A stretch of DNA of 64,000 bases from NCBI GenBank assembly GCA_964419675.1, contig CAYQPN010000001.1, forward strand, positions 100,480 through 164,479, written 5' to 3'. The notes under the pieces were generated by a model. The model had not been told where the DNA came from. It did not search any database and saw only the letters and a list, made by a program, of their open reading frames with translations. Made by a program: the position numbers and the translations under genes. Shown here one piece after another: positions 3,677-47,235 of the stretch. The DNA is from an uncultured Candidatus Saccharibacteria bacterium. GTDB taxonomy: Bacteria; Patescibacteriota; Saccharimonadia; Saccharimonadales; SZUA-47. Numbering within the stretch: the first letter of the stretch is position 1; every line of letters begins with the position of its first letter.

Positions 3677-4114
3677 TTTTGAAATTTTTTGCAAAAGGTC
3701 GTTATTATTAACGTCTTTAATCTTTCACCGATGTTCCTAGTCTCCAAGACCCTGATTATAATGTATGTGTTTTGAATGACCGATTTGGATAAGTTTATTA
3801 ATGTGCTAAAGCTTGTTATAATTATATTTAAATATATGGGGTACAAAAGGCGAGAACTTTTTGACGTAATTCGAGGGTTGAGCCGGGGCGTTAATAAGCT
3901 CGTAACCAACTCCGCTATTGTAGTTCGAAATATTATCATAGTTACCAAAATCTACTTGATACCAATCATAGTAGTCGTACTTGTATGGTTACGCACCACT
4001 ACTGTTTATATTGATGAACACTACTGGAGTCCACAACGTAAAAGATTGATTTTGAAATTTAAACCCTTGCAGAGATGGGATGCATGGGCATACCGACCAC
4101 AGGCAAGAAAATCC

Positions 4115-7100: not shown

Positions 7101-9940
7101 ACACATTTAGCCATAATGAAACCCCTAACGGCGGATCGGTTAACTATAGGCTATCGTCCGACGAAGGCACCACATGGCTATTCTGGGACGGCTTAGCATG
7201 GTCGCAATCAAATAGCCTTACCGAGGCAAATACAGTCGCTGTTATAACTGCTAACTTTGACGAGTTCCCTGTGACATTTGACGGAATGCTCTGGCAGGCA
7301 GTTCTTAGTGGCAATGGGTCACAGCAAGTTATTCTTGACGGTGTAAACGCTGATGCAACTTCTGACACCATCGACCCAACTTCCAACCCGTCGAACATAG
7401 TCGCCTACAAGGCAAACGGGGGTACTGTACTTGCTCAAGACGATTGGACAAATGGCGGGTCACCCTACTTTACCTGGGATGTCGGTGATGACGCCGAATC
7501 AGAAGTGAAGGGTTATTGTGCGTATCTAGGAACTGATGAGCTAGCGGATCCAGTGACAACCAAAGGGCTACTGGGTAATAGCCCAGCTCCAACAGGTGAT
7601 AACTGTCAGTTTATGGTGACTGGAACTTCACTTGACCTAGCAACTCCAGGACTCTTATCAACACCACTCTCAACAACAAACGACACCTACTATCTAAACT
7701 TGCGGACAATTGATAATGCCGGCAATGTCACCAACACCTCTTCTCAATTTTCATTTAGGTTTGATAATACGATGCCAACGAATCCCGGCTACATTACCGC
7801 ACCTTCGGGCTTTATAAACACAAAAGACGTCTCAATGTCATGGCCAACTATAGGCGGTAGTGCACCAAGTGACAGCAATTCAGGATTAGTCGGGCTTCAG
7901 TATCGAATCGGCGCGGGCGGTACATGGTACGGGGATGGTCATACGGGGCTTGGCGACATGGCTGATTTGCTGAACAATGACGGAGAATACAATACTCTAG
8001 AAACTCCCGACTATGCCTCACTCATTGAAGGAATTAACACAGTCTACTTTAGAACGTGGGATTTGGCTGGTAACGTATCTACAACATATGTAACAGCAAC
8101 TCTCAAAATTAACACCAGTGGTGCACCGAGTGTACCGAACAACCTAGTTGCAACACCGACGACAAACACTGCTAACTCCTTTGGATTTAATTGGGATGCT
8201 CCGACGACGTTTATTGGTGACGAGAATAACATTACTTACTGCTACACAATCAATACACTTCCTTCACCGTCATCTTGTGCGTATACAGGCCCCGGCTCAA
8301 CAGAGCTAACCGTAGGCGCATATGCAACACAACCCGGATTAAACACCATGTACATAGCTGCTCGAGATGAGTCTAGCAACATCAACTACGATAATTATGC
8401 TTCCACAGGATTTACAGCTGACACCCCGTCTCCGGGAGTGCCATTAAATACTGACCTTGTAGACGTATCAATAAAAAATACCAGCAACTGGAGGCTAGCG
8501 CTCACATGGGATGTGCCTACATACACCGGTGGTGGTATCAATAATTACCGAATCTTTAGGTCTACAGACAACATTACATTTAATCAAGTCGGAACGAGTT
8601 CAAGCACTACATACATTGACGCCGGTCTAAGCCAGCAAACCTATTACTACAATATTTCAGCTTGTGACAATACAAATAACTGTGGCGCATCTGGTACAAC
8701 GGTGAGTGGCTTTCCTACCGGTAAATTCACAAGCCCTGCCACGCTTATCGACGGACCAGCTACTAGCGACATTACAACTAAACGAGCAAAAGTCAGCTGG
8801 ACAACTGACCGAGCAAGCGATTCGAAAGTACAAATTGGTACACAAAGTGGCGAATATAGCCCATCCGAGGTTGGTAATTCAGATCAAACATCGGTTCATG
8901 AAATTTCTCTGGACAATTTGTCGCCAGGAACAACCTACTACTTAAAAGTAAAATGGACAGACGAGGACGGAAACACAGGCACTAGCTCAGAGCAGACATT
9001 CACGACCGCCCCAGCACCTTCAATTATAGAGCTAGAAGTAACCGGAGTCGGTCTTGGCAGTGCGGGACTTGCCTTTACAACTCGGGGTGCCACAAAGGCT
9101 ACTGTCTACTACGGTACTAGCGAATCGTTTGGCGGGCTAAAAACGGTGAATACTGCAACTGTAGAGTCGCGCTATCAGGTAGAATTAGACGATTTGACCG
9201 ACGGCACAAAATACTACTACATGGTAAGTACCTACGACCAAGAAGGCGCAGAATACAGAGGCAATGTCGGCTCGTTCTCCACGCCACCTCGACCAAGAAT
9301 AACTAATCTTAGGTTCCAACCTGTTGCAGGAGAGCCAACAAGTACCCAGCAGGTAACATGGGACACAAACGTTCCAAGTAGTAGTCAGGTTACCTACAAT
9401 ATTGTTAACGGAACCCCAATTGAAGTACAGGACTCTAGCCTAGTAACTTCTCATGAAATTGTCATACGTAATCTAAGTGATGACAGTGAATATGTTCTTA
9501 CGGCCCTAAGCCGTGATGCGTCAGGAAATTCTACAACTTCAGATAGGCAAGTTTTCCGAACAGCACTTGATACCAGACCTCCAAAAGCCACAGATGTTGT
9601 CGTTGAATCTTCTATTAGGGGTTCCGGTTCAGAGGCTCGTGGCCAAATAGTAGTCTCGTGGCGCACGGACGAACCATCGACAAGCCAAGTTGCGTATGCT
9701 GAAGGTTCAGACGCTGTAACCTTTAACAGCAAGACGGTTGAGGACACGATACTTACGACCGAGCACCTAGTCATTATTTCTGATTTGCCAACTTCTCGAG
9801 TCTTTAGTGTCCAGCCCCTTTCAAAAGACTCTGCAGGCAATGAAGGTCAAGGAGAAACTCAGACCGCCATTATTGGACGGGCATCAGACAGTGCTATTAC
9901 CGTCGTATTCAATACACTTAAAGCGATATTTGGATTATAA
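4115..9940 (+). CDS. Giant secreted repeat protein: about 20 tandem ~45-50-aa beta-propeller-like repeats, a LamG/concanavalin-like domain and multiple Fn3-like domains
   Basis: The ORF is open from 3776 (2054 aa). The likely start is the ATG at 4115 (MELMLAVLFISSIFQAALQAAP, signal-peptide-like). The upstream 113 codons are AT-rich and non-protein-like. The repeat consensus is …NLYAGLGTTANDAEVWRWNGTTWTKIGGDSLNSGW…. The LamG motif is DWRHVAASYNGSTMRIYINGTLENS. Fn3-like signatures include TTYYLKVKWTDEDGNTG and TKYYYMVSTYDQEG. Confidence 0.8.
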   Translation: MELMLAVLFISSIFQAALQAAPDLNDDWDLANAVDYTYDSGIEMVSGVARLKTQNYENDADTRALYHFDESGGINASDSSSNSNNATISGGSFVAGSLNNAVSLDGIDDTVTAPNSASLQLGQQHTIEAWTKFNNNFDSTSHDRRNAVVDKGDYQLYYDNETGKLTYEIANSTSSNWTQTAGSNIGGSWGTNGKRSVTSSIVMGSDVYAGLGNQLADAEVWMWNGSDWELVGGDGVNGSWDDQTFEDVYSMTTDGTNLYAGLGTTAGDAEVWRWDGATWTKIGGDAVSSSWQVSTFETVGSLNYFGSNLYAGLGSSASDAEVWRWNGTTWTKIGGDSLNSGWVAGYEIVSALADDGTNLYAGLGTTANDAEVWMWNGTAWSQIGGDSLNSGWAAGFEAVRAMRYIAGILYAGLGDTAGDADLWSWNGATWSQIGGDGLNGSWNTNYEGIYAIGTDGTDIYAGLGTGNGDGEVWRRSGGSWSQIGGDGLNGSWTTNFGDTVYTLPNNGTTVYAGIYDTAGGGYLYSWNGTTWTTLGGQYINNSWGYYGQGSVEVLQVSGEYLYAGLGSASGSAQIWRLSGSTWSLVGGQGINNSWPANTYEQVSSMSSHEGNLYVGLGTTANDSEVWMWNGTTWSQIGGDSLNSGWTTNFEEVNSLASFNGDLYAGLGNSNNDAEVWRWNGATWTKIGGDSLNSGWTTNYDRVSSLAVYKGNLIAGLGAGAGEAELWQWNGAAWSKIGGDSLNSSWDSTFEQIEALIQFNNKLYIGLGNTAGDGEVWELDDTTWTKIGGDDLNNSWADGTYERVRTLATYNGDLFAGLGSGTGEGEVWRYSAGSWTKVGGNSVNTSWGNTMEEVESFSTYQGKLYAGTGNTANADATVWSLGDNGYLQSTTSSFNTDWRHVAASYNGSTMRIYINGTLENSLSKTFSVATSNRDLLISTGYGGREYGKPQARFQGLIDEVRLSSVSRSSFTTSPYASSPQSLRPQDSVRKNGVWHWDTFSHNETPNGGSVNYRLSSDEGTTWLFWDGLAWSQSNSLTEANTVAVITANFDEFPVTFDGMLWQAVLSGNGSQQVILDGVNADATSDTIDPTSNPSNIVAYKANGGTVLAQDDWTNGGSPYFTWDVGDDAESEVKGYCAYLGTDELADPVTTKGLLGNSPAPTGDNCQFMVTGTSLDLATPGLLSTPLSTTNDTYYLNLRTIDNAGNVTNTSSQFSFRFDNTMPTNPGYITAPSGFINTKDVSMSWPTIGGSAPSDSNSGLVGLQYRIGAGGTWYGDGHTGLGDMADLLNNDGEYNTLETPDYASLIEGINTVYFRTWDLAGNVSTTYVTATLKINTSGAPSVPNNLVATPTTNTANSFGFNWDAPTTFIGDENNITYCYTINTLPSPSSCAYTGPGSTELTVGAYATQPGLNTMYIAARDESSNINYDNYASTGFTADTPSPGVPLNTDLVDVSIKNTSNWRLALTWDVPTYTGGGINNYRIFRSTDNITFNQVGTSSSTTYIDAGLSQQTYYYNISACDNTNNCGASGTTVSGFPTGKFTSPATLIDGPATSDITTKRAKVSWTTDRASDSKVQIGTQSGEYSPSEVGNSDQTSVHEISLDNLSPGTTYYLKVKWTDEDGNTGTSSEQTFTTAPAPSIIELEVTGVGLGSAGLAFTTRGATKATVYYGTSESFGGLKTVNTATVESRYQVELDDLTDGTKYYYMVSTYDQEGAEYRGNVGSFSTPPRPRITNLRFQPVAGEPTSTQQVTWDTNVPSSSQVTYNIVNGTPIEVQDSSLVTSHEIVIRNLSDDSEYVLTALSRDASGNSTTSDRQVFRTALDTRPPKATDVVVESSIRGSGSEARGQIVVSWRTDEPSTSQVAYAEGSDAVTFNSKTVEDTILTTEHLVIISDLPTSRVFSVQPLSKDSAGNEGQGETQTAIIGRASDSAITVVFNTLKAIFGL

Positions 9941-10708
9941 ATGAAAGTTGAAAACCTTTTTTCTGTCAATAATTTAACACTCGAATTCGAGGTTGGAGAA
10001 CAGCACGTTATAGCGGTTAACAACGCCACTGTAAGCATCCCGGATAAAAAAATAACTATCATCTACGGTGCGTCAGGAAGTGGAAAATCCAGTTTGTTAA
10101 ACGTTATCTCGGGCCTGCAACCACCATCTAGGGGGAAGCTACTTTACCGTGGTAACAATATCTATAATCAGTCCGCAAACGAACTAGCATTCTTTCGTGC
10201 ACACGAACTGGGCATTGTTTATCAGACAAACTACTGGGTGAAAAGCCTAACTGTGCTCGAAAATGTGGCACTGCCACTATACTTTCTTGGATACACAAAG
10301 GCAGACGCGCATAAACACGCCAAAGATGCTTTAAGCAGAGTAGGAATGTCAAAATATATTAGTAAACTGCCAGTATTGTTATCGGGTGGTGAACAGCAAC
10401 GTATTGCAATGGCCCGCGCCATAGCCAGTAATCCACCGGTTATCATTGCTGATGAGCCGACCGGAAACCTAGACAGCATAAACGGTGACAAGATTATTGA
10501 TTTATTACGTCAGCTTAACAGGGATGAGGGCAAGACAGTTATTTTGGTCACACATAATATGGAATATATTTCCATGGCTCACCATTTGCTGGAAATAGAG
10601 GACGGGCAAGTAACCGAAATTGATAAAGAAAATATTGCAAAGACGGTCAAGGTGATGCTCGGTGATGCGCAAAAACGAATCACGAAACATATGGAGGCCT
10701 CACGATGA
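9941..10708 (+). CDS. ABC transporter ATP-binding protein, MacB/LolD-like
   Basis: It has Walker A GASGSGKSS, the signature LSGGEQQRIAMARA and Walker B IIADEPTGNLD. Its ATG directly abuts the TAA of the giant gene. Confidence 0.9.
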   Translation: MKVENLFSVNNLTLEFEVGEQHVIAVNNATVSIPDKKITIIYGASGSGKSSLLNVISGLQPPSRGKLLYRGNNIYNQSANELAFFRAHELGIVYQTNYWVKSLTVLENVALPLYFLGYTKADAHKHAKDALSRVGMSKYISKLPVLLSGGEQQRIAMARAIASNPPVIIADEPTGNLDSINGDKIIDLLRQLNRDEGKTVILVTHNMEYISMAHHLLEIEDGQVTEIDKENIAKTVKVMLGDAQKRITKHMEASR

Positions 10709-11931
10709 AAAGGCGCAAGGTCACGGATAAAGCCACAGTTCAGACGGGTATTCTTGCATCAATTGCTCTTAGTAACCTTACTCATAAAAAGCTACGAACA
10801 GGCTTAACTGTTTTTGGTATAGCCATAGGTATTGGTGCAATTTACTTTCTACTTTCTTTCGGCATTGGCCTGCAAAGACTTGTAACAAACGAAGTTATTG
10901 GCAACCAATCTATAAAGACTATAGACGTTGTAAGTTCAAACTCAAATATCGTCAAACTTGACGACACCGCAACCCAACGCGTTACACAAATACCTAACGT
11001 AATTGAGACGGGCAAGGCATACTATTTCCCTGGTAGCTTCAAAATTAGTGGTAGCGAGTCTGACAGCATTGTCTATGGGGTTGATACTGGCTATCAAAAT
11101 TTAACACACCTGAATTTAATTGAAGGCAAACTGCTTAAAGACACAGAAGAACAAAGCGGGGTAGTAATCAACAAAGCAGCGCTAGAAGCTATAGGCTTAG
11201 CGGGCAATCCAAGCGAAGTCATAAACAAGACGGTCAGTGTAATCGTGCCTCTTTCAAAAATTGATTCAGCTCTAGGTACATTTACTGAAGAATTTGTAAT
11301 TGTCGGAATCATAGATTCTGGAAGCGGTTCAGAAATTTTCATATCAAGTGCCATGTTTAAGGACAAAGGCGTGCCCTACCTTACTCAACTTAAGGTTGGC
11401 ACAAGGGAAGTTACAGACATACAAGTTATCCGTTCGCAAATTGAAAGCTTTGGATTTGAAACATCCTCGCCGGTAGATACCTTGGAGGAAATTAATAACG
11501 TATTCCGCTTTCTCAACTACATTTTGGTTGGGTTTGGAGGAATCGGAATGATTGTTGCTGTGCTTGGTATGTTTAACACGCTTACCATTTCACTTCTAGA
11601 GCGAACCAAAGAGATAGGACTTATGGTGGCGCTTGGTGCGCGGTCAATCGACATGAAGCGTCTCTTTATTTTTGAAGCCCTATTCTTGTCACTATTTGGT
11701 TCGGTGCTGGGAATCACTGGCGCTTTCATAATCGGCAGAGTCGTAAATACTGTTATGAACATTCTGGCATCCGGTAGGGGTGTGCAAGACAGTTTTGAAC
11801 TGTTTGCTAATCCGCCACTTCTTATCATAGGAATGCTAGCTTTTATGGTTGCTGTCGGGTTAGCGGTTGTATATTTGCCCGCAAGGCGCGCGCAAAGAAT
11901 TAACCCAATTGATGCACTTAGACGAGAGTAG
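10705..11931 (+). CDS. ABC transporter permease, FtsX/MacB-type (N-terminal TM, large extracytoplasmic domain, C-terminal 3-TM FtsX domain)
   Basis: 408 aa with an ATGA start/stop overlap with the ATPase gene. The C-terminal FtsX-like segment ends …YLPARRAQRINPIDALRRE. Confidence 0.85.
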   Translation: MKRRKVTDKATVQTGILASIALSNLTHKKLRTGLTVFGIAIGIGAIYFLLSFGIGLQRLVTNEVIGNQSIKTIDVVSSNSNIVKLDDTATQRVTQIPNVIETGKAYYFPGSFKISGSESDSIVYGVDTGYQNLTHLNLIEGKLLKDTEEQSGVVINKAALEAIGLAGNPSEVINKTVSVIVPLSKIDSALGTFTEEFVIVGIIDSGSGSEIFISSAMFKDKGVPYLTQLKVGTREVTDIQVIRSQIESFGFETSSPVDTLEEINNVFRFLNYILVGFGGIGMIVAVLGMFNTLTISLLERTKEIGLMVALGARSIDMKRLFIFEALFLSLFGSVLGITGAFIIGRVVNTVMNILASGRGVQDSFELFANPPLLIIGMLAFMVAVGLAVVYLPARRAQRINPIDALRRE

Positions 11932-12052
11932 TCGGTTCACAGTACAGTTTAGTGTTAGGTTAGAACCAGCGTTTTGTTATAAAATAGGCTCGTCTATCAG
12001 TCACAGTCCCTGCAAAGCGGGCGACTGGATTGAGATGGTAATTCATCCCACA

Positions 12053-12070
12053 ATCCCAGCCAATTAAAAC
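12053..12070 (+). repeat. Third partial copy of the tRNA-Gln 3' end plus downstream flank (atcccagccaaTtaaaac vs atcccagccaaCtaaaac at 3498..3515)
   Basis: 17 of 18 nt are identical and the match extends past the tRNA CCA end. The upstream ~100 nt (11950..12052) are homologous to the arm element 3548..3654. Confidence 0.55.
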
Positions 12071-12157
12071 AATCTTTACGAGTTACCCCATCTATGATAA
12101 TTTAGGTTTTTTATAGTATATCCATTCATACAATCAAGTCCTATAATTATAAATAAC

Positions 12158-12367
12158 ATGTATGTATTAGTTGATGAAACTGGTGAACTAGAGTCTACTA
12201 CTAAAGATGGGTTAGGAATTTGTACCCTAGTAATGATCAATGATAAAAGCTGGAATAAATTTAACAAATTTTTATTAAAAAACGAAATAGACCCTAAATT
12301 TCAAAAATCCAGTAACCTAAAGTTTGATAAAAGAAAAATAATTACAAATTATATCTCTAGTAATTGA
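12158..12367 (+). CDS. Hypothetical protein (69 aa) in a very AT-rich block; N-terminal VLVDETGE resembles the DUF3800-type N-terminal motif
   Basis: ORF only. It is in the same frame as 12512..13108 and separated from it by stops, so it may be a decayed single gene. Confidence 0.3.
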   Translation: MYVLVDETGELESTTKDGLGICTLVMINDKSWNKFNKFLLKNEIDPKFQKSSNLKFDKRKIITNYISSN

Positions 12368-12511
12368 GGTATATACTATTATGCTATTTGCCACGACCCT
12401 GTTTACTATGATTTAGAATCTATAAAGAATCACAAAATAGAACAAGCTAGCAGAGTTGATAAGTTTATAAAATCAGACACAGACACTAAAAAAGAAATTA
12501 GAGCGAAAAAC

Positions 12512-13108
12512 TTGCTAATATTTCGAAACCAATATCGCAACTTAACGAATCCAGACTTTATAAAACTCACAATGATTACTGAAGCTTTTATGAAATGGTT
12601 TGAATATTTTCAGTTTGACATAGACAATTTTCCAAACAATGATGATAACTGGCATTTTTTTCATAGAATTGATACGCAAAACAAGCCTGAGAAATTCAAG
12701 CGATTATTGACTGGTTACATTAAAATGACCATTCATCCAGCTGCAAATAATGGGATATCAATAAAGTATAACAGCGACATTTCTTTGAGACACCCGTTTC
12801 ACAAAAATAATGCAGGAAAAGATGGTTATGCTGACCCAAATATATTTCTTGAAGATATAAAAATTACTACTGAAACAGTAACTCCCCAGTTATTTTTACC
12901 AGATTTCTTTGGCAACACTTTTTTTCGAGCTTTCAAAACAAATGAAGAAAAATATTTAAGTTTAGCAAAAAACTTAGGTCAAAGAAGAATGAAAGCAATG
13001 AAGTTTAGGCCAAATAATAAGTATATTCTAAAAGTAATTAGTTTTGATGATAAAAAAGTGCGTGTAAATAAAAAACTTGAAGATTTTTTAATATCTACGA
13101 AGCAATGA
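12512..13108 (+). CDS. Hypothetical protein (198 aa), AT-rich accessory block
   Basis: Long ORF in an AT-rich region (~25-30% GC by eye). No recognisable motifs. Confidence 0.4.
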   Translation: MLIFRNQYRNLTNPDFIKLTMITEAFMKWFEYFQFDIDNFPNNDDNWHFFHRIDTQNKPEKFKRLLTGYIKMTIHPAANNGISIKYNSDISLRHPFHKNNAGKDGYADPNIFLEDIKITTETVTPQLFLPDFFGNTFFRAFKTNEEKYLSLAKNLGQRRMKAMKFRPNNKYILKVISFDDKKVRVNKKLEDFLISTKQ

Positions 13109-13249
13109 TCGACCGGCGCAATATAGCACGCGTCTAAGGCCGCGTGTGATCACGCTGTTTAATCAGTTGTTGCCGAAAATGTGTTAGTGCTAAATTATAT
13201 ATCATAAGTTACGGTATATAATGTAACCTATAAATAGGAGTAAACCGTT

Positions 13250-14125
13250 TTGCAGTCAAATCAATGTGTATCTTGTATTGCAAACTCAATTACTGATTCT
13301 TGGTACATTCTGCTCAATAACTTATATGAAATTGCTCAAAACTATGATAATGCCAATCAAGAAAATACTTCGACTGTAGATAATTACGCGACCAGGATTA
13401 CTATAGGAATTATAAATTCATCTTTCATGAACCTTTGTACAGGTGTTCACGAAAACGGAAAAAATAATTTTGAGTCGTTTATGTGCATTTCACGAAATGT
13501 TCTTGAAAGGCTTTCGAATATAAACTATCTCAACTCTAAACCGGAAAATAGAATTAAATACTCAAAAATATTAAAAAATAATGAACGTGATATTTGTGAA
13601 CTTTACTTGCCTGCGGACCCGATTAAAAAATCAACAGAATGGAAATCTCAAAAGTGGACTAATATAAGCCAGGAAAAACGTATAAATGCTTTATCTAGTA
13701 AACAACATATTCTTCTATATGGATATTATTCGAGGGTACTACACACATTAAATATTGATATTTTACTTAAAGATGAAATGAATATGACTTTTATAAAGAT
13801 CTACACACTTCTAGAATTAGTTATATCATATAACACTGTACTTTCTGTTTATCACGAAAATTCCGATGAGTATAATGCCATAAAAACTAAACACAAAGAA
13901 TTTAACAATTTACTAAATTTTACATGGATGAACAAGAATTTATCTCTCAACTCAATTATTTTGTTGACAACTTTTTACGATGATAAAAGAGACAAAAGAA
14001 ACTCTAAAGTTCTCAAATTATACTTAAAAGCTTTAAAAGGGTCTCAAAAAAGTATGACATTTCCAGAATTTGTATATGTTAAACATGATTTATCTTTTAA
14101 ACATAATAATGAGACAATACACTAA
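13250..14125 (+). CDS. Hypothetical protein (291 aa), AT-rich accessory block
   Basis: Long ORF with a TTG start, preceded by AGGAG 11 nt upstream. No recognisable family. Confidence 0.45.
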   Translation: MQSNQCVSCIANSITDSWYILLNNLYEIAQNYDNANQENTSTVDNYATRITIGIINSSFMNLCTGVHENGKNNFESFMCISRNVLERLSNINYLNSKPENRIKYSKILKNNERDICELYLPADPIKKSTEWKSQKWTNISQEKRINALSSKQHILLYGYYSRVLHTLNIDILLKDEMNMTFIKIYTLLELVISYNTVLSVYHENSDEYNAIKTKHKEFNNLLNFTWMNKNLSLNSIILLTTFYDDKRDKRNSKVLKLYLKALKGSQKSMTFPEFVYVKHDLSFKHNNETIH

Positions 14126-17047: not shown

Positions 17048-18652
17048 ATGAGGAGTAGCTACAATGTTTCCTACAGTGGAAACTACAGACGGAAGAAAAG
17101 CGGGGTACGTAAGCTAGTCGTATTTTTGGCACTTCTTGTCATATTTTTATCTGTCGGGGTTATTGGATACAAATTATTGAATCCTCCTAGTATTGAAGAA
17201 AAAATCGTAAATCAAATTACATTTGACGAAAGTTTTTCTGAGGGCGAAATACAAACTGTCTCGGATGCAATTAAAAACCAAAAAATGGACATAAGAGGTA
17301 AAATAACCGCTCATATTGATACGGTGGACGACGGAACTAAAATAAACTCTGTTCTTGATGCGTACGTGGCGGTGACAAGCGTTAAGTCTCCTAAGCAACA
17401 AATTACCAAAGCTGTGCTTGCTCTGCAACCTCCAAAGATTTGGGAAGGCCTAGACAAAACAGTGCGTTACGGAGTAGCTAGTACTTTAGGTGTCAGTGGT
17501 GATAGCCTATCAACGACCAGCTCTCTAGAAGACTTGAGCAGTACAGACGTAGTTTTTATACCCGTTAGCGAGCTTAGCTTTAAAGTAAAATTATTGGCTC
17601 TAGACGGCTCTTATTATCTTGACAGTTTTACAAAAGGGGCAATATTTAGAACTGTCAGCTTTTCTGGCGAATTCGTGTCTAACTTGGACGGTTTGGTGTT
17701 GAATAATCTACCGACTAAAGAAAGTGTAGCCAAAGTTAACCAAACAGGAGTTACTGCTTTGACGAGAGTGATGATGAAAAAACTGGATACAGTTGGCGAC
17801 CCTTTATACTTCAGCAAAAATATTGGAAAGTTTTTGGCTGACGCGGATTTAACTCATGTATCCAATGAAGTTTCGTTCAAACCAGATTGCGGTTATTCAA
17901 ATGCTTTGTTTTGCTCTGATCCACGATTCATCGAAACGTTGAAAGATAGTGGTGTGGATTTAGTGGAGCTGACTGGAAATCATAATAATGATTTAGGGAG
18001 TAATTTTAATACTGATACTATTAATCAATACCATAGTCTGGGAATTGCTACTTTTGGTGGTGGGCTAAATACTGAAGAGGCAGGCAAGTTCCACGTTGCA
18101 GACAAAAAAGGTTCAAAAATTGCTTTCCTGGGCTATAACTATCCAGATTCCCCAGGAGGTGGAGCAATAGCAAAAGCAACAACCGCTGGGGCAAACAGTT
18201 TTGACTTTGATCGTATTAAGACCGATATAGAGAACGCTAAACAACAAGCCCAATTTATAATTGTGGATGTGCAGTATTGGGAATGTTATGCCTATCCTGA
18301 CGGCTACATAGAGTTTCCGACTTGTGATAAGCCAATAGGAGAGCAAGAAGCAGTATTTAAACGGCTGATTGACCTTGGTGCTGATATGGTGGTTGGCTCC
18401 TCAGCTCACCAACCACAAACGTACGAGCTGTATAAAGAAAAGCCAATATATTATGGTTTAGGTAATTTGTACTTCGATCAAACAAGCTGGCCCGGAACGG
18501 AGCGGGGAATAGTCCTTACTCATTATTTTGATAGAGGAAGACTACTGCAGACAAAGCTAACACCTACTTTCTATGACACCGCTTTGCAGACATCGATAAT
18601 GGACGATTCGGATGCAGTTAGCCTACTGCGACGGTTACAAGAAGCTCGCTAA
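17048..18652 (+). CDS. CapA/PGA_cap-family protein (poly-gamma-glutamate capsule synthesis-like metallophosphatase fold) with N-terminal TM anchor
   Basis: Motifs: VELTGNHNNDLG…GGGLN…IAFLGYNYP…MVVGSSAHQPQ…YYGLGNLYFDQ. Confidence 0.7.
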   Translation: MRSSYNVSYSGNYRRKKSGVRKLVVFLALLVIFLSVGVIGYKLLNPPSIEEKIVNQITFDESFSEGEIQTVSDAIKNQKMDIRGKITAHIDTVDDGTKINSVLDAYVAVTSVKSPKQQITKAVLALQPPKIWEGLDKTVRYGVASTLGVSGDSLSTTSSLEDLSSTDVVFIPVSELSFKVKLLALDGSYYLDSFTKGAIFRTVSFSGEFVSNLDGLVLNNLPTKESVAKVNQTGVTALTRVMMKKLDTVGDPLYFSKNIGKFLADADLTHVSNEVSFKPDCGYSNALFCSDPRFIETLKDSGVDLVELTGNHNNDLGSNFNTDTINQYHSLGIATFGGGLNTEEAGKFHVADKKGSKIAFLGYNYPDSPGGGAIAKATTAGANSFDFDRIKTDIENAKQQAQFIIVDVQYWECYAYPDGYIEFPTCDKPIGEQEAVFKRLIDLGADMVVGSSAHQPQTYELYKEKPIYYGLGNLYFDQTSWPGTERGIVLTHYFDRGRLLQTKLTPTFYDTALQTSIMDDSDAVSLLRRLQEAR

Positions 18653-18655
18653 AAA

Positions 18656-19333
18656 TTATTCTGCAACAGTAAAGAAACCCGTAACTTCTGGCTCAAAGTG
18701 GTCATGATATTGGAATGTTCCGGTTTCAGAGAGAGTAATTGTTTTGTTTTTCCCTTTTTTGATAAACAAATCGGTTTCTCCTGCATATGCACCGTGTTTA
18801 GGGTGAGTCCCAAATGTAATTTCTCGAGCATCATCTTTGTTTATAAATGTTAGTGTGTCACACTTCTCCGCAAAGACGTAGGTAGGGTCAACCCGGTCGT
18901 CCTTTATTGTTATCTGGTGGTTCGGGTGCTGGCCTTTGCATGCGCCTGTCTCTTCGCCACTGATTTGATAAATACCCTCTTTATCCACTAGCTTTTTAGC
19001 TTGTTCTACAGGTGACATGTTGTAATGGAGGTTATTTATTATAAGTATTGAGCCACCAACAACCATCACGATCATTCCTGCTGTTGCAACAAAAAAGTAC
19101 AGATTCCATTTCGGTTTAGGACCTCGACCTAGATGCAAAAAGTAAAATATCTGTACTAATAATTGAGCAAAGGCCAGCCCCAAGATACTAACCAACAGTA
19201 AATTACTTGATAGAGTCTGATTGACTACAATGTGGTAGGCAACATATGTCAATATTAGTGATAAAACAAAACCAACTGTGTAGTTAATTACGTTACCGTG
19301 TTCGGCGTTAGTTCTGCTAGTGTTATGACTCAT
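18656..19333 (-). CDS. cyoD: Quinol oxidase subunit IV (CyoD-like) fused to a ~125-aa C-terminal extracytoplasmic beta-sandwich (cupredoxin-like?) domain
   Basis: The track ORF runs to 19375. The likely start is the internal ATG (MSHNTS…), which overlaps the cyoC stop (ATGA). The N-terminal ~110 aa has 3 TM helices typical of CyoD. The C-terminal segment (…HPKHGAYAG…YHDHFEPEVTGFF…) has no obvious CyoD counterpart. Confidence 0.6.
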   Translation of the reverse strand: MSHNTSRTNAEHGNVINYTVGFVLSLILTYVAYHIVVNQTLSSNLLLVSILGLAFAQLLVQIFYFLHLGRGPKPKWNLYFFVATAGMIVMVVGGSILIINNLHYNMSPVEQAKKLVDKEGIYQISGEETGACKGQHPNHQITIKDDRVDPTYVFAEKCDTLTFINKDDAREITFGTHPKHGAYAGETDLFIKKGKNKTITLSETGTFQYHDHFEPEVTGFFTVAE

Positions 19334-19923
19334 ATGAATGCCCTCAGATATACTAATGTGAATATAAAGATCCAAACTATATCTAAGAAGTGCCAGTACA
19401 GACTTAACATTGCTAGTTTACGTAGTAAGTGTTTGTCTAGTCCTCTTTTGATGACAAAAATAAGTGTGATTCCCATCCATAACAAACCAAAGGTTATGTG
19501 TAACCCGTGGGTTCCGACAAGAACAAAAAAGGAAGACAAAAATGCATTGACCGTAAGGGTATGTCCCTCATGTGCAAGCTCGATAAATTCAAAAAGCTCT
19601 AGGCCCAAGAAAGCCAGCCCGAGTATAAAGGTAATTAAAAACCAGAGGAGGGTTTGGGACTTCTTGCCCCCGCGCGCTGCAAGCATAGCTATACCAGCGG
19701 TAAAGCTACTCGTAAGTAGTAATAGTGTGCCAGTTAATGCGATTGGAAGGCTGAATAACTCTTTTCCTGATTCTCCTCCATTCGTATTGTTATGAAGCAC
19801 AGAATAGACCGCAAACAATATTCCGAACATTAGAAGGTCAGTCATTAGATACACCCAGAATCCAAACATTGCTCTGTCGTTTGCTGCTTCTTCGTGGTGG
19901 TTTAACTCATTATTTTCTACCAT
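19330..19923 (-). CDS. cyoC: Heme-copper quinol oxidase subunit III
   Basis: 197 aa with 5 TM helices and CyoC/COX3-like conservation (…HLVDIVWIF-like C-terminus). Confidence 0.85.
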   Translation of the reverse strand: MVENNELNHHEEAANDRAMFGFWVYLMTDLLMFGILFAVYSVLHNNTNGGESGKELFSLPIALTGTLLLLTSSFTAGIAMLAARGGKKSQTLLWFLITFILGLAFLGLELFEFIELAHEGHTLTVNAFLSSFFVLVGTHGLHITFGLLWMGITLIFVIKRGLDKHLLRKLAMLSLYWHFLDIVWIFIFTLVYLRAFI

Positions 19924-22019
19924 TTACGCCATCCTTTTGTTCTAAGCACCTTCCAAAAGAACGACAACACAGTTATGACTAATTGCCAAACACCCATTTC
20001 TTCTGATTCTTCAAATGATTCAATAGATTTTGCTTGCAACTTTTTAGCTCTTGATTCTTCATGCTTTTGTACCTCTGCGGCACTTAGTTCATATTCAACG
20101 TTGTCATCAAATGTACGTCTAACAAATACTACAATTATGCCTATTAAGGATACGGCCGCCAGCCAATTTATATGCCAAACAAAAGCTAAGCCTAAGAAAA
20201 ATGCCCATATTGAAATGTAAATTCCGGCTGCCGTATTTTTGGGCATATGAATGTCTTCATAAACTGGCTTATCTAAACTTTTTTGCTTCATATTCCAATA
20301 AGCATCTCTAGTACTAATTTGTGGGACAACCGCAAAATTGTAAAACGGTGGTACTGGTGGGGTGGACCATTCCAGAGTTCGGCCATTCCAAGGGTCACCA
20401 CTCATATCCCGATATCGATTCTTCTGAATAAGCGTTGCTACAATTTGTGCTAACTGCATTGCAACAGCAATCATGATGATCACTCCGCCTATGAACATTA
20501 ATACAAAAAGCGGTTGCCAACCTGTGGATGCGTCGTAGTGATCCATTCTTCTTGTTGCACCCATGAAGCCTAAAATAAACATTGGGATAAACGACAAACT
20601 AAAACCAGTAATCCATAGCCAGAAAGCGTTTCTTCCGATACGTTCGTTTAACTTGTAGCCACTAAATTTAGGAAACCAGTAATTAATACCAGCAAAAATT
20701 CCGAATAACACGCCACCAATTACAGTGCTATGGAAGTGTGCTACCAAAAACAGGCTATTGTGTAGCTGAAAATCGACGGGTGGCACTGCTAGCAAAACTC
20801 CGGTCAAGCCGCCTATTGTAAATATACCCGCAAAGCCTAAGAACCAAAGCATCGGTGTTTTGAAGCTTATCCGACCTTTGTACATAGTTGCCATCCATGA
20901 AAAAACTAGAATAGTTGTAGGGATTGCAATTAAGATAGTCATTGTCCCGAAAAAAGCATTAACGTTTGCTCCCGCTCCCATAGTGAAAAAGTGATGAAGC
21001 CAAACAGATAAAGCAAGTGCTGCTACCCCAATCAATCCAACTACGTTTGATTTGTACATCGCGACTGCTTTACGACTAAAGGTTGACACAATTTCAGAAA
21101 ATGCTCCGTAAGCAGGCAAAATTAATATGTAAACCTCTGGGTGCCCCCACATCCAAATCAAGTTGGTGTACATCATTGGGTCACCTCCACCCATTGTCGT
21201 GAAGAAATGGGTTCCCAAATATCGATCAAAAAACATCAAGAACAGAGTCATGGTTAGAAGAGGGAAGACTGTAGCTGCCATAATCATGCTGCACAGAGAA
21301 CCCCATGTAAATAATGGCATTTTAAGTAGGCTCATACCAGGTGCGCGCATCTTAAGTATCGTCATTATGAAGTTAATTGCTCCAAGGGTAGTACCGATAC
21401 CCGAAATTTGCAGACTCCAAATCCAATAATCAACCCCAACTCCCGGGCTAAACTCCGTCCCAGATAATGGGGCAACAGCAAGCCAACCTGTTGCTGCGTA
21501 TTCTCCCCCAAGAAAGAAGAACATGTTGACCATGATTACACCTGCTACGTAGAGCCAAAATCCCAAGGTGTTGAGGAAAGGTGATGCCAAATCACGAGCC
21601 CCTATTTGAAGCGGAACAATATAATTAATTAGTCCAAATATAAAAGCCATAGCCACAAAGAAAACCATTATGTTGCCATGAGCTGTAAAGATTTGCTGAA
21701 AGTGGTCTGCTGTCAAGTAGCCTGTGGCAGATTCTCCAATTCCGACAGTTGGTGCAAGGGCTTGTTGAAGCCAAAGCATTATGGCGTCGAGGCCTCCACG
21801 AATAAGCATGAATCCACCAACGACAAAATACATAATTCCAATTTTTTTGGGATCAACAGATGTCAACCATTCGTCCCATAGCCATCTCCAGCGTTTCTTT
21901 TTGGTTATGACAAGTACTATTAGTAGCAGCAGCGCTATGAATGCAACCGAACCACCAATTGTGAACCATTCATGTGGCAGAGATTTTAGGTCTAGTTTGC
22001 CTAGAAAGAATTCTCTCAT
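19917..22019 (-). CDS. cyoB: Heme-copper quinol oxidase subunit I
   Basis: 700 aa with classic COX1/CyoB motifs (…WFFGHPEVYIL…, HHMF…). Confidence 0.9.
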   Translation of the reverse strand: MREFFLGKLDLKSLPHEWFTIGGSVAFIALLLLIVLVITKKKRWRWLWDEWLTSVDPKKIGIMYFVVGGFMLIRGGLDAIMLWLQQALAPTVGIGESATGYLTADHFQQIFTAHGNIMVFFVAMAFIFGLINYIVPLQIGARDLASPFLNTLGFWLYVAGVIMVNMFFFLGGEYAATGWLAVAPLSGTEFSPGVGVDYWIWSLQISGIGTTLGAINFIMTILKMRAPGMSLLKMPLFTWGSLCSMIMAATVFPLLTMTLFLMFFDRYLGTHFFTTMGGGDPMMYTNLIWMWGHPEVYILILPAYGAFSEIVSTFSRKAVAMYKSNVVGLIGVAALALSVWLHHFFTMGAGANVNAFFGTMTILIAIPTTILVFSWMATMYKGRISFKTPMLWFLGFAGIFTIGGLTGVLLAVPPVDFQLHNSLFLVAHFHSTVIGGVLFGIFAGINYWFPKFSGYKLNERIGRNAFWLWITGFSLSFIPMFILGFMGATRRMDHYDASTGWQPLFVLMFIGGVIIMIAVAMQLAQIVATLIQKNRYRDMSGDPWNGRTLEWSTPPVPPFYNFAVVPQISTRDAYWNMKQKSLDKPVYEDIHMPKNTAAGIYISIWAFFLGLAFVWHINWLAAVSLIGIIVVFVRRTFDDNVEYELSAAEVQKHEESRAKKLQAKSIESFEESEEMGVWQLVITVLSFFWKVLRTKGWRKW

Positions 22020-22022
22020 ATC

Positions 22023-22946
22023 TTAATGCTCCTCACCCGTATGCTCATTTTCATGTCCATGATCATCGGAAGCACTGTTGTATTTATCAAGTACGTTATT
22101 GTACACATCATAGTCTGTAGTTGAGAATAGTGCCACTTTATCGGACTCACTTGGTTCAAGAAGCTTTTCATACATATCTGAGTCTAGCATTTCTGAGCCA
22201 TTTCGTACTTCTTCGACCCACTTGTCAAAGTCTTGTTGACTGCTTGCTTTTGCAGTAAAGGTCATCCCTGCAAATCCAGCACCATTGATTTCTGCAGAAC
22301 GTCCGGTGTATTCACCAATTTCTTCTGCCATTAGATTAATTCCATTTCTATGACCCGTCATAGCGTATAGTTGGCCGCCAATATGTGGAATCCAGAATGA
22401 ACTCATTGGCGTTTCGTCGGCGGTCAGTACGAAGTTAACAGGTGTATCTTCCGGAATTTGTACAAAATTTAACGAAGCTATTCTTTGTTCGGGATAGATA
22501 AACAACCACTTCCATCGCAGTGCTACAACTTGAATGTTGAGTGTCTCGGTAGCTGACTCTAAAGGTTTATTTGGTGCCAATCTATGGGTTGCCGGCCACA
22601 TGGCGATTATTAAAACCGCTACAGTAATTGAAGGTATTGCCCACATTTTAAAAACAAAGAATTTGCTATGACGAATATTTGGACTATAGACTGCTTTATC
22701 GCTTGTATCTCTAAATTTCCAAGCAAACCAATAAAAAAGTATTAACGCAGGTATTGCTACAATAGCCATAATAATTATGTTAAAAATCATCAGATCATAT
22801 TGTGCTTCAGCAACTTGACCCTTAGGGTTTAGTAGAGTAAATTCGATATTTTGAGAGACGAAAATAAGAATAGAAATGACAGTTGTAGCCCCGAGCAATG
22901 ATTTAACAAGTGTTTTTCTTGCGCTTTTTGCGCGAGTTTTTTTCAA
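22023..22946 (-). CDS. cyoA: Quinol oxidase subunit II (no CuA Cys ligands, so quinol-oxidase type)
   Basis: 307 aa with 2 N-terminal TM helices and a cupredoxin domain lacking the C..C CuA motif (…SAEINGAGFAGM…). Confidence 0.85.
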   Translation of the reverse strand: MKKTRAKSARKTLVKSLLGATTVISILIFVSQNIEFTLLNPKGQVAEAQYDLMIFNIIIMAIVAIPALILFYWFAWKFRDTSDKAVYSPNIRHSKFFVFKMWAIPSITVAVLIIAMWPATHRLAPNKPLESATETLNIQVVALRWKWLFIYPEQRIASLNFVQIPEDTPVNFVLTADETPMSSFWIPHIGGQLYAMTGHRNGINLMAEEIGEYTGRSAEINGAGFAGMTFTAKASSQQDFDKWVEEVRNGSEMLDSDMYEKLLEPSESDKVALFSTTDYDVYNNVLDKYNSASDDHGHENEHTGEEH

Positions 22947-23085
22947 TTAAATGCCCCTGCTATCACATTAAATAATCCTTAAGCTAACTATAACATAACA
23001 GTTTTAAAAATTAATATCTTTAGTCAACGGAATAAGATTCAGCTGGTATAGTAAACGTAGTTCTGGATAAACAAAGGAATACAAT

Positions 23086-23943
23086 TTGAAGCTTAAAGAA
23101 TATTATGCATTAACTAAGCCAGGAATAATTTACGGCAACGCGATGACGACAGTTGCCGGATTTTTGTTTGCCTCTCAAGGAAACGTTGAACTAGATTTGC
23201 TCATATATACAAGCCTAGGAGTGGGTTTTGTGATTGCTTCAGGGTGTGTTTTTAATAACTATCTTGACCGTGAAATTGATAAGAAAATGACTAGAACTAA
23301 AAATCGGGCGCTTGTTACCGGCAAGATATCTGTGCTAAATGCTCTCGTGTTCGCAACAATTTTGGGTTTGTCAGGCTTTTTAATACTGGCTACAAAAACA
23401 AATGTTCATACTGTTATATTAGGCTTTATAGCTATATTCTCATACGTTGTAGTGTACGGATTTGCTAAACGACGAAGCGTGCATGGGACTTTGGTCGGAA
23501 GTATTCCGGGGTCTATGTCGTTAGTTGCTGGGTACGTCGCTGTTTCTGGAAAAATAGACGAAGCTGCAATACTACTGTTTATGATAATGGCTATTTGGCA
23601 GATGCCTCACTTTTACGCTATTTCAATTTTCAGAAAAAGTGATTACGTGCGGGCAAAATTACCAGTTAGCTCTGTGGTTAGAGGTGTGATGGCGACCAAA
23701 AAACAGATACTCATATATATTGTGTTATTTATGTTTACGAGTTTGCTGTTGAGCATCAGAGGGTTTAGTGGCCTGACGTACTTAGTAGTCATGATGGCAG
23801 TAAGCTTAAGATGGTTACAGCTGGCGCTGAGTGGTTTTGCGGAGGGCGAGGATAATAAATGGGCAAGATCACTCTTTGGGTTTTCTTTAGTTGTATTACT
23901 TGTATTCAGTTTTATGATTTCAGTTGATAGTTGGATTTGGTAG
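23086..23943 (+). CDS. cyoE: Protoheme IX farnesyltransferase (heme O synthase)
   Basis: UbiA-family polytopic protein with a TTG start: …YYALTKPGIIYGN…NNYLDREIDKKMTRTKNRALVTG…. Confidence 0.85.
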   Translation: MKLKEYYALTKPGIIYGNAMTTVAGFLFASQGNVELDLLIYTSLGVGFVIASGCVFNNYLDREIDKKMTRTKNRALVTGKISVLNALVFATILGLSGFLILATKTNVHTVILGFIAIFSYVVVYGFAKRRSVHGTLVGSIPGSMSLVAGYVAVSGKIDEAAILLFMIMAIWQMPHFYAISIFRKSDYVRAKLPVSSVVRGVMATKKQILIYIVLFMFTSLLLSIRGFSGLTYLVVMMAVSLRWLQLALSGFAEGEDNKWARSLFGFSLVVLLVFSFMISVDSWIW

Positions 23944-24209
23944 TGTATAATTTGCTTATGGCTTTAGTGATACACATTATAATTGCACTTTCGAGTTTAG
24001 GTTTTTCAATTTATCTTTTATCTTCACCTTCGTCGAACAAAATAAAAGTCTCATACGGATTAATAGCATCAACAATAGCTAGCGGAACGTACTTGGCAGT
24101 TCTTGATTCATCTCAAATTTTAAGAGTATGTGCAACTGGTTTGTTGTTCAGTGGTGTATCCGTATTTTTCGTTGTTCTATCCCGCAAAAAATTGGCAATT
24201 CAAGATTAA
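23931..24209 (+). CDS. Small hypothetical membrane protein
   Basis: 92 aa, hydrophobic, overlaps the cyoE end. Confidence 0.3.
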   Translation: MDLVVYNLLMALVIHIIIALSSLGFSIYLLSSPSSNKIKVSYGLIASTIASGTYLAVLDSSQILRVCATGLLFSGVSVFFVVLSRKKLAIQD

Positions 24210-38357: not shown

Positions 38358-38569
38358 ACTTTTAATTAACCATCGTAGACTGCTATAATTAGCAATATTA
38401 ACAATTAAACATATAAAGAGTGTGGAGTAGGGATCTAGCCCGCAAATACCACCAGCAACCGGCAATTATGCAAAGGTGCTAAATCTAGCCCGACTTGGTT
38501 GGGGAAGATATTTGCTACACATTAGTAAGCCTTTCTTGACCATCGGTGGCCATAAGAAAGGTTTTTTTG

Positions 38570-46251: not shown

Positions 46252-47235
46252 ATGCCAGAAGCTAATGCCAAGTCTTTAACATCGGTTCACGATGTAATTA
46301 TGATTGGTGCTGGGCCAACAAGCTTGGCTGCAGCAATTTATACTTCGAGAGAAGATATAGAGACGCTTATCTTTGAAAAGGGCGTTATTGGTGGTTTAGC
46401 TGCTATAACCGACATGATTGACAACTATCCAGGCTTTGAAGAAGGCGTAGAGGGTTTAGCCTTGGCCGATAAGCTTCAGAAACAAGCCGAACGCTTTGGT
46501 GCTGTCATTGAACTTGGAGAGGTGCAATCAGTAAGCAAAAAGGGTGAACTTTTCAGCCTACTAACAACAAGCGGAGAAATGAAGGCCAAAACGGTGCTCA
46601 TTGGTACTGGCTCTGAATGGAAAAAGATTGGTGTACCAGGAGAAGATGAATTTTATGGGCGCGGAGTGCATAACTGTGCAACCTGTGATGGAGCATTTTA
46701 TAGAGATAAAAAGTTAGTAGTTGTCGGTGGCGGTAATTCCAGCGCGCAAGAAGCTTTATTTTTAACAAAATTTGCAAGCCATATCGACATATTGATACGA
46801 GGGGACAAATGGAAAGCTAGTGAAGTGTTAATCCATGAGATTGAAAAGAATGACAAAATAACAGTTCATTTTAAAACAACTACTGATGAGATTGTAGGAA
46901 GTGAAGTTGATGGGATAAAAAAGGTCACCAAAGTTATTGGGACAAAAGACGGGGTTAAAACAGATTTTATCACGGATGGGGTATTTGTATTTATTGGTCT
47001 GCGACCAGTTACTGGATTTTTGAAAGATACAGGAGTTGAGTTTGATGATTTTGGTTTTGTTAGGACAGACAATAAATTAATGACGAACATCCCTGGGCTA
47101 TTCTGTGCTGGAGATGTACGTTCTGGGGCTACAATGCAGATTGCTAGTGCAGTTGGAGAAGGTGCATCTGCAGCATTATCGATAAGAGAATATCTAGAAA
47201 ACTACGACCGCAAAAACATGCCTAACGGGAACTAG
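46252..47235 (+). CDS. trxB: Thioredoxin-disulfide reductase
   Basis: FAD GxGxxA motif, redox-active CATC (…HNCATCDGAF…), and NADPH-binding VVGGGNSS. Confidence 0.85.
   Translation: MPEANAKSLTSVHDVIMIGAGPTSLAAAIYTSREDIETLIFEKGVIGGLAAITDMIDNYPGFEEGVEGLALADKLQKQAERFGAVIELGEVQSVSKKGELFSLLTTSGEMKAKTVLIGTGSEWKKIGVPGEDEFYGRGVHNCATCDGAFYRDKKLVVVGGGNSSAQEALFLTKFASHIDILIRGDKWKASEVLIHEIEKNDKITVHFKTTTDEIVGSEVDGIKKVTKVIGTKDGVKTDFITDGVFVFIGLRPVTGFLKDTGVEFDDFGFVRTDNKLMTNIPGLFCAGDVRSGATMQIASAVGEGASAALSIREYLENYDRKNMPNGN

Follow-up and report, generated by a model that had tools for sequence, protein, structure and literature searches.

A Saccharimonadia cytochrome bo3-type quinol oxidase with a cupredoxin-like domain fused to CyoD and loss of the K-channel lysine

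Introduction

The cytochrome bo3 quinol oxidase of Escherichia coli (CyoABCD, with the heme O synthase CyoE; PDB 1FFT, 6WTI) is the closest described counterpart of the locus reported here, a set of cyoABCD and cyoE genes found at positions 18656-23943 of a 64,000-nucleotide stretch of DNA from an uncultured Candidatus Saccharibacteria bacterium (contig CAYQPN010000001.1; this whole stretch is called the window in what follows). The two systems agree in the gene order cyoA-B-C-D, in the lack of a CuA site and in the presence of a heme O synthase gene alongside, and the CyoB of the window, which is 54.6% identical to that of E. coli, shares with it the haem/CuB, D-channel and quinol-site residues as well as Y288, T359 and R481/R482. 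They differ in that CyoD of the window carries about 115 additional amino acids (aa) forming a cupredoxin-like domain, in that K362 of the K-channel has become Leu and E89 of CyoA has been lost, and in the presence of a C-terminal helix of about 35 aa on CyoB. Further, the CyoA of the window has no lipoprotein Cys, its cyoE is divergent whereas that of E. coli is the last gene in the operon, and both CyoB and CyoA score under the NCBIfam equivalog cut-offs. The locus is, overall, of a known kind; its fused, K-channel-less form is a new variant.

Much has already been published on this oxidase in Saccharibacteria, including the presence of a cyo operon of lateral origin, the lack of quinone and haem synthesis, the use of scavenged cofactors, a function in O2 scavenging and the existence of adjacent genes given as 'oxidoreductase or conserved hypothetical' (PMC6031116, PMC8407418, PMC11659515). 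More than half of environmental Saccharibacteria carry the cyo oxidase (PMC11659515). A previous sequence-only reading of the window had seen in it an organism of the Candidate Phyla Radiation (CPR) type, in agreement with our finding that all close homologues are named Saccharibacteria or Saccharimonadales. It had also considered worthy of note a terminal oxidase in such an organism without quinone genes nearby, and suggested that it could serve for O2 detoxification with host-derived quinone. Genes for a type II NADH dehydrogenase (NDH-2), an FAD-linked oxidase, a polyprenyl synthase or the men/ubi pathways are indeed lacking in the 64-kb window, but neither idea is new, since both O2 scavenging and scavenged quinone are on record in the three papers just cited. 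As to electron carriers, Starr et al. mentioned an unspecified 'blue-copper protein' as a possible one, and a 2025 survey assigned the delivery of electrons to NirK to single-domain 'plastocyanins' in Patescibacteria (PMC12931201). The oxidase is routinely cited for CPR respiration or O2 scavenging, which presupposes that it functions as E. coli bo3 does. In the literature that we searched on Saccharibacteria and Patescibacteria we found no description of a CyoD fusion, of a ligand-less, His-type cupredoxin family or of K-channel loss, which is no proof of their absence elsewhere.

Outer-face metalloproteins built into terminal oxidases, or encoded with them, are known from the caa3 oxidases, where cytochrome c is fused to subunit II, from the archaeal SoxM with sulfocyanin, and from halocyanins, the archaeal ones being membrane-anchored cupredoxins. 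These domains bind haem c or a type-1 copper, from which CuA is fed. In the present case, in contrast, both a type-1 site and CuA are lacking, the quinol site has been preserved and it is subunit IV that carries the fusion. Cys-free Cu(II) sites made of His and Asp, with HxH or DxH among their motifs, exist on the extracytoplasmic cupredoxin-like beta-sandwiches of CopC and of PmoB (CuB site, HxH); the CyoD domain has no detectable homology to them, its fused form cannot have an N-terminal His brace, and its own metal binding is a prediction. With amicyanin, plastocyanin and pseudoazurin the domain shares the Greek-key beta-sandwich and a weak, alignable similarity which includes a GDT...N...F and G-x-F-x-V framework. 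It differs from these type-1 proteins in the replacement of their ligands (His by Arg170, Cys by Asp211, His by Glu/Gln214 and Met by Val/Thr217) and in having HPxH and HDH motifs, a Cys pair and a tether to an oxidase subunit. Finally, copper chaperones consisting of a membrane-anchored extracytoplasmic beta-domain have been described, such as Cox11 (CtaG) and the cupredoxin-like PCuAC (PMC6696091), and a stand-alone form of our domain resembles them in its N-terminal anchor, its extracytoplasmic beta-domain and its being encoded with oxidase genes. Compared with Cox11/CtaG, the CyoD domain has no CxC and no Pfam or NCBIfam family match; compared with PCuAC, it has neither the H(M)X10MX21HXM motif (PMC6696091) nor any conserved Met. 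Its candidate ligands are His and Asp instead of Cys and Met, and it is fused 1:1 to the enzyme.

Results and Discussion

The CyoD fusion

The cyoD gene of the window (18656-19333 from its ATG, minus strand) encodes a protein of 225 aa plus stop, against 109 aa in E. coli, and is recognized by the NCBIfam CyoD model (85.3 bits, cut-off 81.45) over residues 12-106 only. As Pfam COX4_pro and the AlphaFold2 helices (15-38, 43-67 and 75-102) indicate, residues 1-105 (19019-19333) form the membrane part, with three transmembrane helices. There follows a conserved linker with the pattern KKLxxxEGIYQIxGExTG (residues 106-130, 18944-19018), delimited by an alignment of 35 fused proteins and by the AlphaFold2 confidence score (pLDDT), and then a domain of cupredoxin fold without type-1 copper ligands (residues 131-225, 18659-18943), identified by AlphaFold2, Foldseek and a profile search of the PDB. 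The sequence-only reading had CyoD running about 125 aa past the normal subunit IV into a soluble domain; the domain is real and the length is closer to 115 aa.

The AlphaFold2 monomer model, built from the 35-sequence alignment, shows a beta-sandwich at residues 138-224 with high confidence (pLDDT 90-96), so that the lack of any predicted fold, which the earlier reading had named as fatal to its proposal, is not what we find. Residues 105-129, on the other hand, are modelled with low confidence (pLDDT <50), yet E119, I121, Q123, T129 and G130 in the linker are invariant in the 35 fused proteins. The combination of invariant sequence and low pLDDT suggests that the linker may dock on the oxidase core and be ordered only when docked. 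Foldseek placed amicyanin first (E=4e-9, TM-score 0.68 normalised to the target), followed by pseudoazurin, plastocyanin and Cupredoxin_1 structures, and amicyanin was also retrieved by the sequence profile search of the PDB (E=1e-3). The Pfam family Cupredoxin_1 (PF13473) matched the extension at E=7.8e-5 with 23.1 bits, under its gathering cut-off of 27, and a precomputed match to the same family is on record for many CyoD homologues. In the profile alignment the amicyanin ligands H53, C92, H95 and M98 face R170, D211, E214 and V217 of CyoD; with all four type-1 ligands replaced, a canonical blue-copper electron carrier was discarded as an identity for the domain. The earlier description of an extracytoplasmic, cupredoxin-like domain without the Cys ligand therefore holds, with amicyanin as best match and Asp211 at the Cys position, while its 'His-rich' character is modest (6 His in 110 residues).

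The three transmembrane helices, the only basic loop of the protein (GRGPKPKW, between the second and third helices), which would lie inside, and the Cys pair described below predict that the domain is outside the cell. In E. coli the C-terminus of CyoD is on the outside, an established topology, and the extension is placed likewise.

We considered whether the long CyoD could be an assembly or frameshift artefact joining cyoD to a downstream gene. That stand-alone versions of the domain exist would be compatible with this, and one locus (L047, 9887-10679), from a genome of 1.19 Mb that looks closed and is labelled Parcubacteria, has its fused cyoD interrupted by what seems to be a frameshift, either a sequencing error or the mark of a pseudogene. 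Against it, the identical 225-aa protein appears in separate NCBI, European Nucleotide Archive (ENA) and Logan assemblies; among 631 CyoD homologues the best 120 are all full-length, with 212-244 aa; and the linker itself is conserved. Moreover, a genome scan with one genome per species yielded 102 relatives, and in the best 80 of them, nearly all labelled Saccharibacteria and the basis of all counts out of 80 given here, CyoD is fused in 80/80 loci and comes after cyoA-B-C wherever the contig permits. The scan patterns were made from fused-type sequences, so what this count demonstrates is a wide distribution of the fused type, without implying that no other type exists. We have consequently rejected an artefact, whose probability we regard as negligible, and the fusion survives the test that the earlier reading had set for it.

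The histidine cluster

In the set of 35 sequences, the invariant or nearly invariant residues of the domain are C132, C158, H139, P150, D159, D167, F174, H177, P178, H180, Y183, G185, H210, D211, H212 and G219. Cys132 (18938-18940) and Cys158 (18860-18862; the pair spans 18860-18940, minus strand) are the only two Cys in the domain, neither at a type-1 ligand position. They are found in 80/80 fused proteins and kept in the stand-alone family, and probably form a disulfide, to judge from this conservation. The candidate metal ligands lie in two motifs on the same strand, HPKH (His177 and His180, 18794-18805), invariant in the 35-sequence set, and HDH (His210-Asp211-His212, 18698-18706). Among the 80 species C132, C158, Y183 and G185 are conserved in 100% and D211 in 95%, and the histidines in 75% (H177), 70% (H180), 79% (H210) and 76% (H212).

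The distribution of these four His is bimodal. All four are kept in 53/80 species, where about 25 would be expected if they were independent, and none or one is kept in 20/80, where about 4 would be expected; pairwise correlations among them are 0.59-0.83. By this pattern of co-variation, the four His (HPxH...HDH) are kept or lost as a unit. A neighbour-joining tree, rough and only indicative as it was built from the same protein, needs about 12 or more changes in the state of the cluster, so that its loss was not one inherited event. The 27/80 species with a degenerate cluster still keep the domain, the Cys pair, D159, D167, Y183, G185 and D211. H210 falls on what we take to be the position of plastocyanin Tyr83, beside the Cys ligand, and H177/H180 presumably on the 42-45 acidic patch segment that surrounds Tyr83; homology to the plastocyanin structure thus predicts that the His cluster is on the side of the sandwich, beside the former copper site.

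In degenerate copies the usual replacement is by Tyr, for His177 in 13/80 and for His210 in 16/80 species. Tyr is also a ligand of haem and of Fe(III), and an outer-face beta-sandwich with an invariant Tyr183 and several His might capture scavenged haem or another host-derived cofactor, in bacteria that encode no haem synthesis beyond heme O synthase and must scavenge haem (PMC6031116). However, neither NEAT nor any other haem-binding family showed similarity to the domain in the Pfam, NCBIfam and PDB searches, the domain is folded like copper proteins and no haem transporter is evident at the locus, and we find this function very unlikely.

Stand-alone relatives of the domain and their genomic contexts

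A profile of the domain retrieved 1826 clusters (50% identity) at E<1e-3 and 323 at E<1e-10. Most of the matches are 130-145 aa long, have a membrane anchor at the N-terminus and show the motifs C...C, H-x-x-H and F-H-D-H and an Arg at position 170, and H180, H210 and H212 are His in 11/11 stand-alone copies examined. Their names are nearly all Saccharimonadales or Saccharibacteria, with one Dormibacteraeota bin. We propose that this HPxH...HDH cupredoxin-like domain, either fused to CyoD or stand-alone, constitutes a new family of Saccharimonadia, to which the window protein belongs with its Cys pair, H177, H180, H210, D211 and H212. Several stand-alone His-type proteins (P0277, P0293, P0302, P0327 and others) are annotated 'plastocyanin' by the Joint Genome Institute (JGI); the family consensus has no Cys ligand (of these proteins, the sequence of P0327 alone was read). 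Such labels may mislead metabolic reconstructions that take these proteins as electron carriers. In one contig (L092, 6627-7393) a canonical Cys/His/Met cupredoxin of 125 aa (...YHCFPHPYM...) lies directly upstream of a His-type paralogue (...WHDHLHD...) and overlaps it, a gene pair that suggests, as the origin of the His-type family, the duplication of a genuine blue copper protein.

Genomic contexts were sampled for nine stand-alone copies, and three of these lie at cyo operons. Two of the three, in L001 and L003, are directly at a cyoABCD-cyoE set with an ordinary CyoD (122 and 128 aa), flanked by NDH-2 and an FAD-linked oxidase; the third, in L089, immediately follows a fused cyoD whose His cluster is degenerate, while its own is intact. 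This arrangement recurs. A stand-alone copy adjoins the fused gene in 6/80 genome loci, and in 5 of these 6 the fused cluster is degenerate and the neighbour intact; put differently, an adjacent intact stand-alone copy is present at 5/27 degenerate loci vs 1/53 intact loci (Fisher p=0.015). In the window itself, a profile search of all open reading frames (ORFs) in six frames revealed no second, stand-alone copy. That the domain works together with the oxidase is indicated mainly by the fusion and by this neighbourhood pattern, and the presence of an intact stand-alone copy beside a degenerate fused one implies that the His site itself must be retained.

The same data bear on whether the domain could be a purely structural, cofactor-free module for protein-protein contacts, which would stabilise or cap the outer face of the oxidase or tie the oxidase to the cell wall or to the host surface, its His being incidental or serving in pH sensing. 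The species with a degenerate cluster, which nevertheless keep the domain and its other conserved residues, would fit such a role, as would the docking suggested by the conserved linker, and Arg170 and Asp211, at the former ligand positions H53 and C92, could make a salt bridge in place of the metal. But the four His found in most species, and H180/H210/H212 in every stand-alone copy examined, are more than a scaffold requires; they are lost together, and the tendency of an intact stand-alone copy to accompany a degenerate fused one implies that the site is needed. We therefore judge a solely structural function unlikely, although it is the alternative to which we give most weight.

The oxidase core and the K-channel

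The remaining subunits are encoded upstream of cyoD on the minus strand. CyoA (subunit II, 307 aa, 22023-22946) matches Pfam COX2 and COX_ARM and aligns with E. coli CyoA (1fft_B) with 212 bits; CyoB (subunit I, 700 aa, 19917-22019) matches Pfam COX1 with 465 bits and E. coli CyoB with 785 bits; and CyoC (subunit III, 197 aa, 19330-19923) matches Pfam COX3 and the NCBIfam CyoC model (226.9 bits, cut-off 223.75). The NCBIfam equivalog scores of CyoB (913 vs 1020) and CyoA (238 vs 266) are below cut-off, with Cyo still the top family for each. The cyoC stop and the cyoD start share the sequence ATGA. CyoE is encoded on the plus strand (23086-23943; Pfam UbiA 182.6 bits, NCBIfam heme o synthase 348 bits, cut-off 285), divergently from cyoA and separated from it by a 139-bp spacer; it adjoins the cyo operon in 53/80 related loci. 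The sequence-only reading had described this layout correctly, including the complete set of five genes, the ATGA overlap and the divergent heme O synthase. It had also assigned the enzyme to the quinol oxidases on the ground that subunit II lacks the CuA cysteines, and we concur: there is not a single cysteine in the whole of CyoA, so a CuA site is impossible, and the quinol-site residues R71, D75, H98 and Q101 (E. coli numbering) are kept in CyoB of the window, together with T359 and R481/R482.

The active site is also complete. The haem and CuB ligands H106, H421, H419, H284, H333 and H334 and the cross-linked Tyr288 are kept in the window and in 62-63 of 63 loci, and the D-channel residues D135, N142 and E286 in 63/63. 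The K-channel, in contrast, has lost residues in both subunits, which is the most unusual feature of the locus. Where E. coli has IPTGVKIFNW the window has IPTTILVFSW, and in this alignment, which has no gaps, Leu371 (codon 20907-20909, minus strand) stands in the place of K362. Of 63 loci, 60 have Leu here and one has Val; the two with Lys (L001 and L003) are those with an unfused CyoD. In CyoA, alignment with E. coli puts Val98 (22653-22655, minus strand) at the position of Glu89, the entrance to the channel; over 65 Saccharibacteria loci this residue is variable (V/A/N/S and others), as it is non-acidic in the window, and Glu is found only in L001 and L003. A third trait goes with these, a CyoB C-terminal extension of about 35 aa (residues ~665-700, 19920-20027, minus strand), amphipathic and basic, with the pattern ...EDMGxWxLI...RWRKW. 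It is conserved in the fused-type loci and absent in E. coli, L001 and L003. A scan of metagenomes with an unfused CyoD as query produced 24 loci. None of them is fused, and of the 14 in which the K362 site was readable 13 have the Lys, which supports that unfused CyoD goes with K362. Going by these sequences there are two cyo lineages, one of which combines the cupredoxin fusion, the loss of the K-channel and the CyoB tail.

According to mutagenesis studies, mutation of the K-pathway Lys and Glu inactivates model oxidases, and replacement of K362 does so in E. coli bo3 itself. Both K362 and Y288 belong to its K-pathway (PMC6423279), and K-channel mutants lose oxidase activity and keep the peroxidase partial reaction (PMC10095113). 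With its four-His cupredoxin-derived domain, its loss of the K-pathway Lys and Glu and its additional C-terminal helix in CyoB, the fused form, dominant among the loci recovered here, departs from the bo3 model in three clade-specific traits and may not work like the textbook enzyme; if it is active, it represents a natural experiment on whether an A-family oxidase can function without a K-pathway. The domain could be conceived as an outer-face copper site with a redox or catalytic function, dedicated to electron transfer or reactive-oxygen chemistry, and the partner of a quinol-driven peroxidase or scavenger of O2 or reactive oxygen species (ROS) whose K-pathway is closed. Besides the loss of K362 and E89 in fused-type loci with the D-channel and active site intact, two further points would favour this. 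An HxH and two more His on a Greek-key sandwich recall, as an analogy only, the Cu site of Cu,Zn-superoxide dismutase, and membrane-anchored cupredoxins partner oxidases in archaea. Without CuA, however, no path is evident by which electrons could pass from a copper on the outer face to haem b, copper sites made only of His carry electrons poorly, and the intact quinol site, with NDH-2 adjoining in 21/80 loci, fits ordinary quinol-driven turnover. In addition, the fusion, the K-channel loss and the CyoB tail may each have a single origin in one ancestor; because of this, the co-occurrence of fusion and K-channel loss is no proof of functional coupling, and they may be mere traits that travel together in one clade. 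We hold such a redox centre to be improbable.

A stronger form of this idea, and in our opinion a still less probable one, is that the fused-type Cyo might be mainly a quinol-driven, possibly proton-pumping, peroxidase or ROS scavenger, not a conventional O2 reductase, with the outer four-His copper domain as catalytic partner, which would for example convert superoxide or supply substrate or metal. If true, haem-copper enzymes would gain a new functional class, and it would become understandable why oxygen-exposed episymbionts whose respiratory chain is incomplete have retained this oxidase. Metabolic reconstructions of 'aerobic' CPR bacteria would need revision if the enzyme were mainly a peroxidase or scavenger.

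A possible role for the domain

Our preferred reading, which we offer tentatively and with a confidence somewhat short of even, is that the locus encodes a Saccharimonadia-specific ('type 2') cytochrome bo3-type quinol oxidase in which a docked, metal-holding module of CyoD would provide copper for CuB. Its components deserve different degrees of credit. We are highly confident of the anatomy and of the link of the domain to the oxidase, and binding of a metal by the His cluster, as predicted, is rather likely; the supply of copper as the specific function of the domain is a possibility that we consider doubtful. In this proposal, the cupredoxin domain would stay docked on the outer face of the oxidase at all times, as a fifth module, and its His4(Asp) cluster would bind a metal. 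As in other Cys-free cupredoxin-like sites of the envelope, this metal would most likely be Cu(II). The domain would thereby capture or hold copper for making or maintaining the CuB centre. In lineages whose fused copy has no His cluster, the fused domain might be mainly a structural dock and the stand-alone paralogue would keep the metal site. The earlier reading had spoken of a metal- or quinol-handling accessory: the metal part is plausible, in view of the four His kept or lost together and the link to cyo, and nothing was found in favour of quinol handling.

Several points weigh against copper supply. Metal binding by the domain is a prediction, and the proximity of the His in space rests on their co-variation and on the comparison with plastocyanin. 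About one third of the species keep the domain without the cluster, so part of what it does must be independent of the cluster. There is no need for a chaperone to be joined 1:1 to its client, and the Met or Cys ligands typical of Cu(I) chaperones are not present. Of the nine stand-alone copies whose context was sampled, six are away from cyo (that of L092 beside the cupredoxin, five in unrelated contexts), and only 1/24 metagenomic loci with unfused CyoD, of unknown taxonomy, has a stand-alone copy nearby, which does not support a universal neighbourhood link. In favour of copper supply are the architecture of the stand-alone form, which is that of known oxidase copper chaperones (PMC6696091), and the absence of Cox11, Sco and PCuAC from Pfam scans of the 64-kb window. 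The latter result covers these scans only: the rest of this genome and whole genomes of relatives were outside the search, and the neighbours looked for in the 80 related loci were cyo, NDH-2, FAD-oxidase and polyprenyl synthase. The proposal provides a testable lead on how CuB is formed in organisms without known copper chaperones.

Neighbouring genes and other features of the window

A small ORF for a hydrophobic membrane protein of 92 aa (23931-24209, plus strand), with no Pfam match, overlaps the end of cyoE. A homologue comes after cyoE in 24/80 Saccharibacteria loci, and it may be an unrecognised membrane protein associated with the oxidase or with haem O. On the opposite side, a convergent gene of the PGA_cap family (17048-18652, plus strand) and the end of cyoD are 3 bp apart, which leaves no space for a terminator between them; this neighbour is conserved in 0/80 related loci.

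In other Saccharimonadales a 'respiratory island' recurs around cyo (L001, 6737-15876; L003, 3827-13224; L089, 1828-12144). Near cyo, NDH-2 is found in the 21/80 loci already mentioned, a FAD_binding_4/FAD-oxidase_C dehydrogenase in 30/80 and a polyprenyl synthase in 16/80, and the island of L089 also has an ABC1/UbiB-family kinase. The island genes are absent from the window; a 327-aa Pyr_redox_2 protein (46252-47235) was examined as a candidate NDH-2 and rejected, as it gave no BLAST match to the NDH-2 of other loci.

The other genes of the window fit Saccharibacteria and include genes of glycolysis and the pentose-phosphate pathway, a sortase and giant surface proteins. One of the latter, of 2054 aa (3776-9940, plus strand), contains Laminin_G_3, fn3 and Ig-like domains and lies within a region of raised GC content (0.45-0.48 vs ~0.40 elsewhere); it is followed by genes for an ABC ATPase and a MacB/FtsX-type permease (9941-11931). 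A SAM riboswitch (Rfam RF00162, 50.2 bits) at 38408-38514 on the plus strand is directly upstream of a gene for S-adenosylmethionine synthetase (38546-39676). Finally, a patch of low GC content (0.30) at 12001-14125 comprises two ORFs without Pfam match (12512-13108 and 13250-14125) and may be foreign or fast-evolving DNA.

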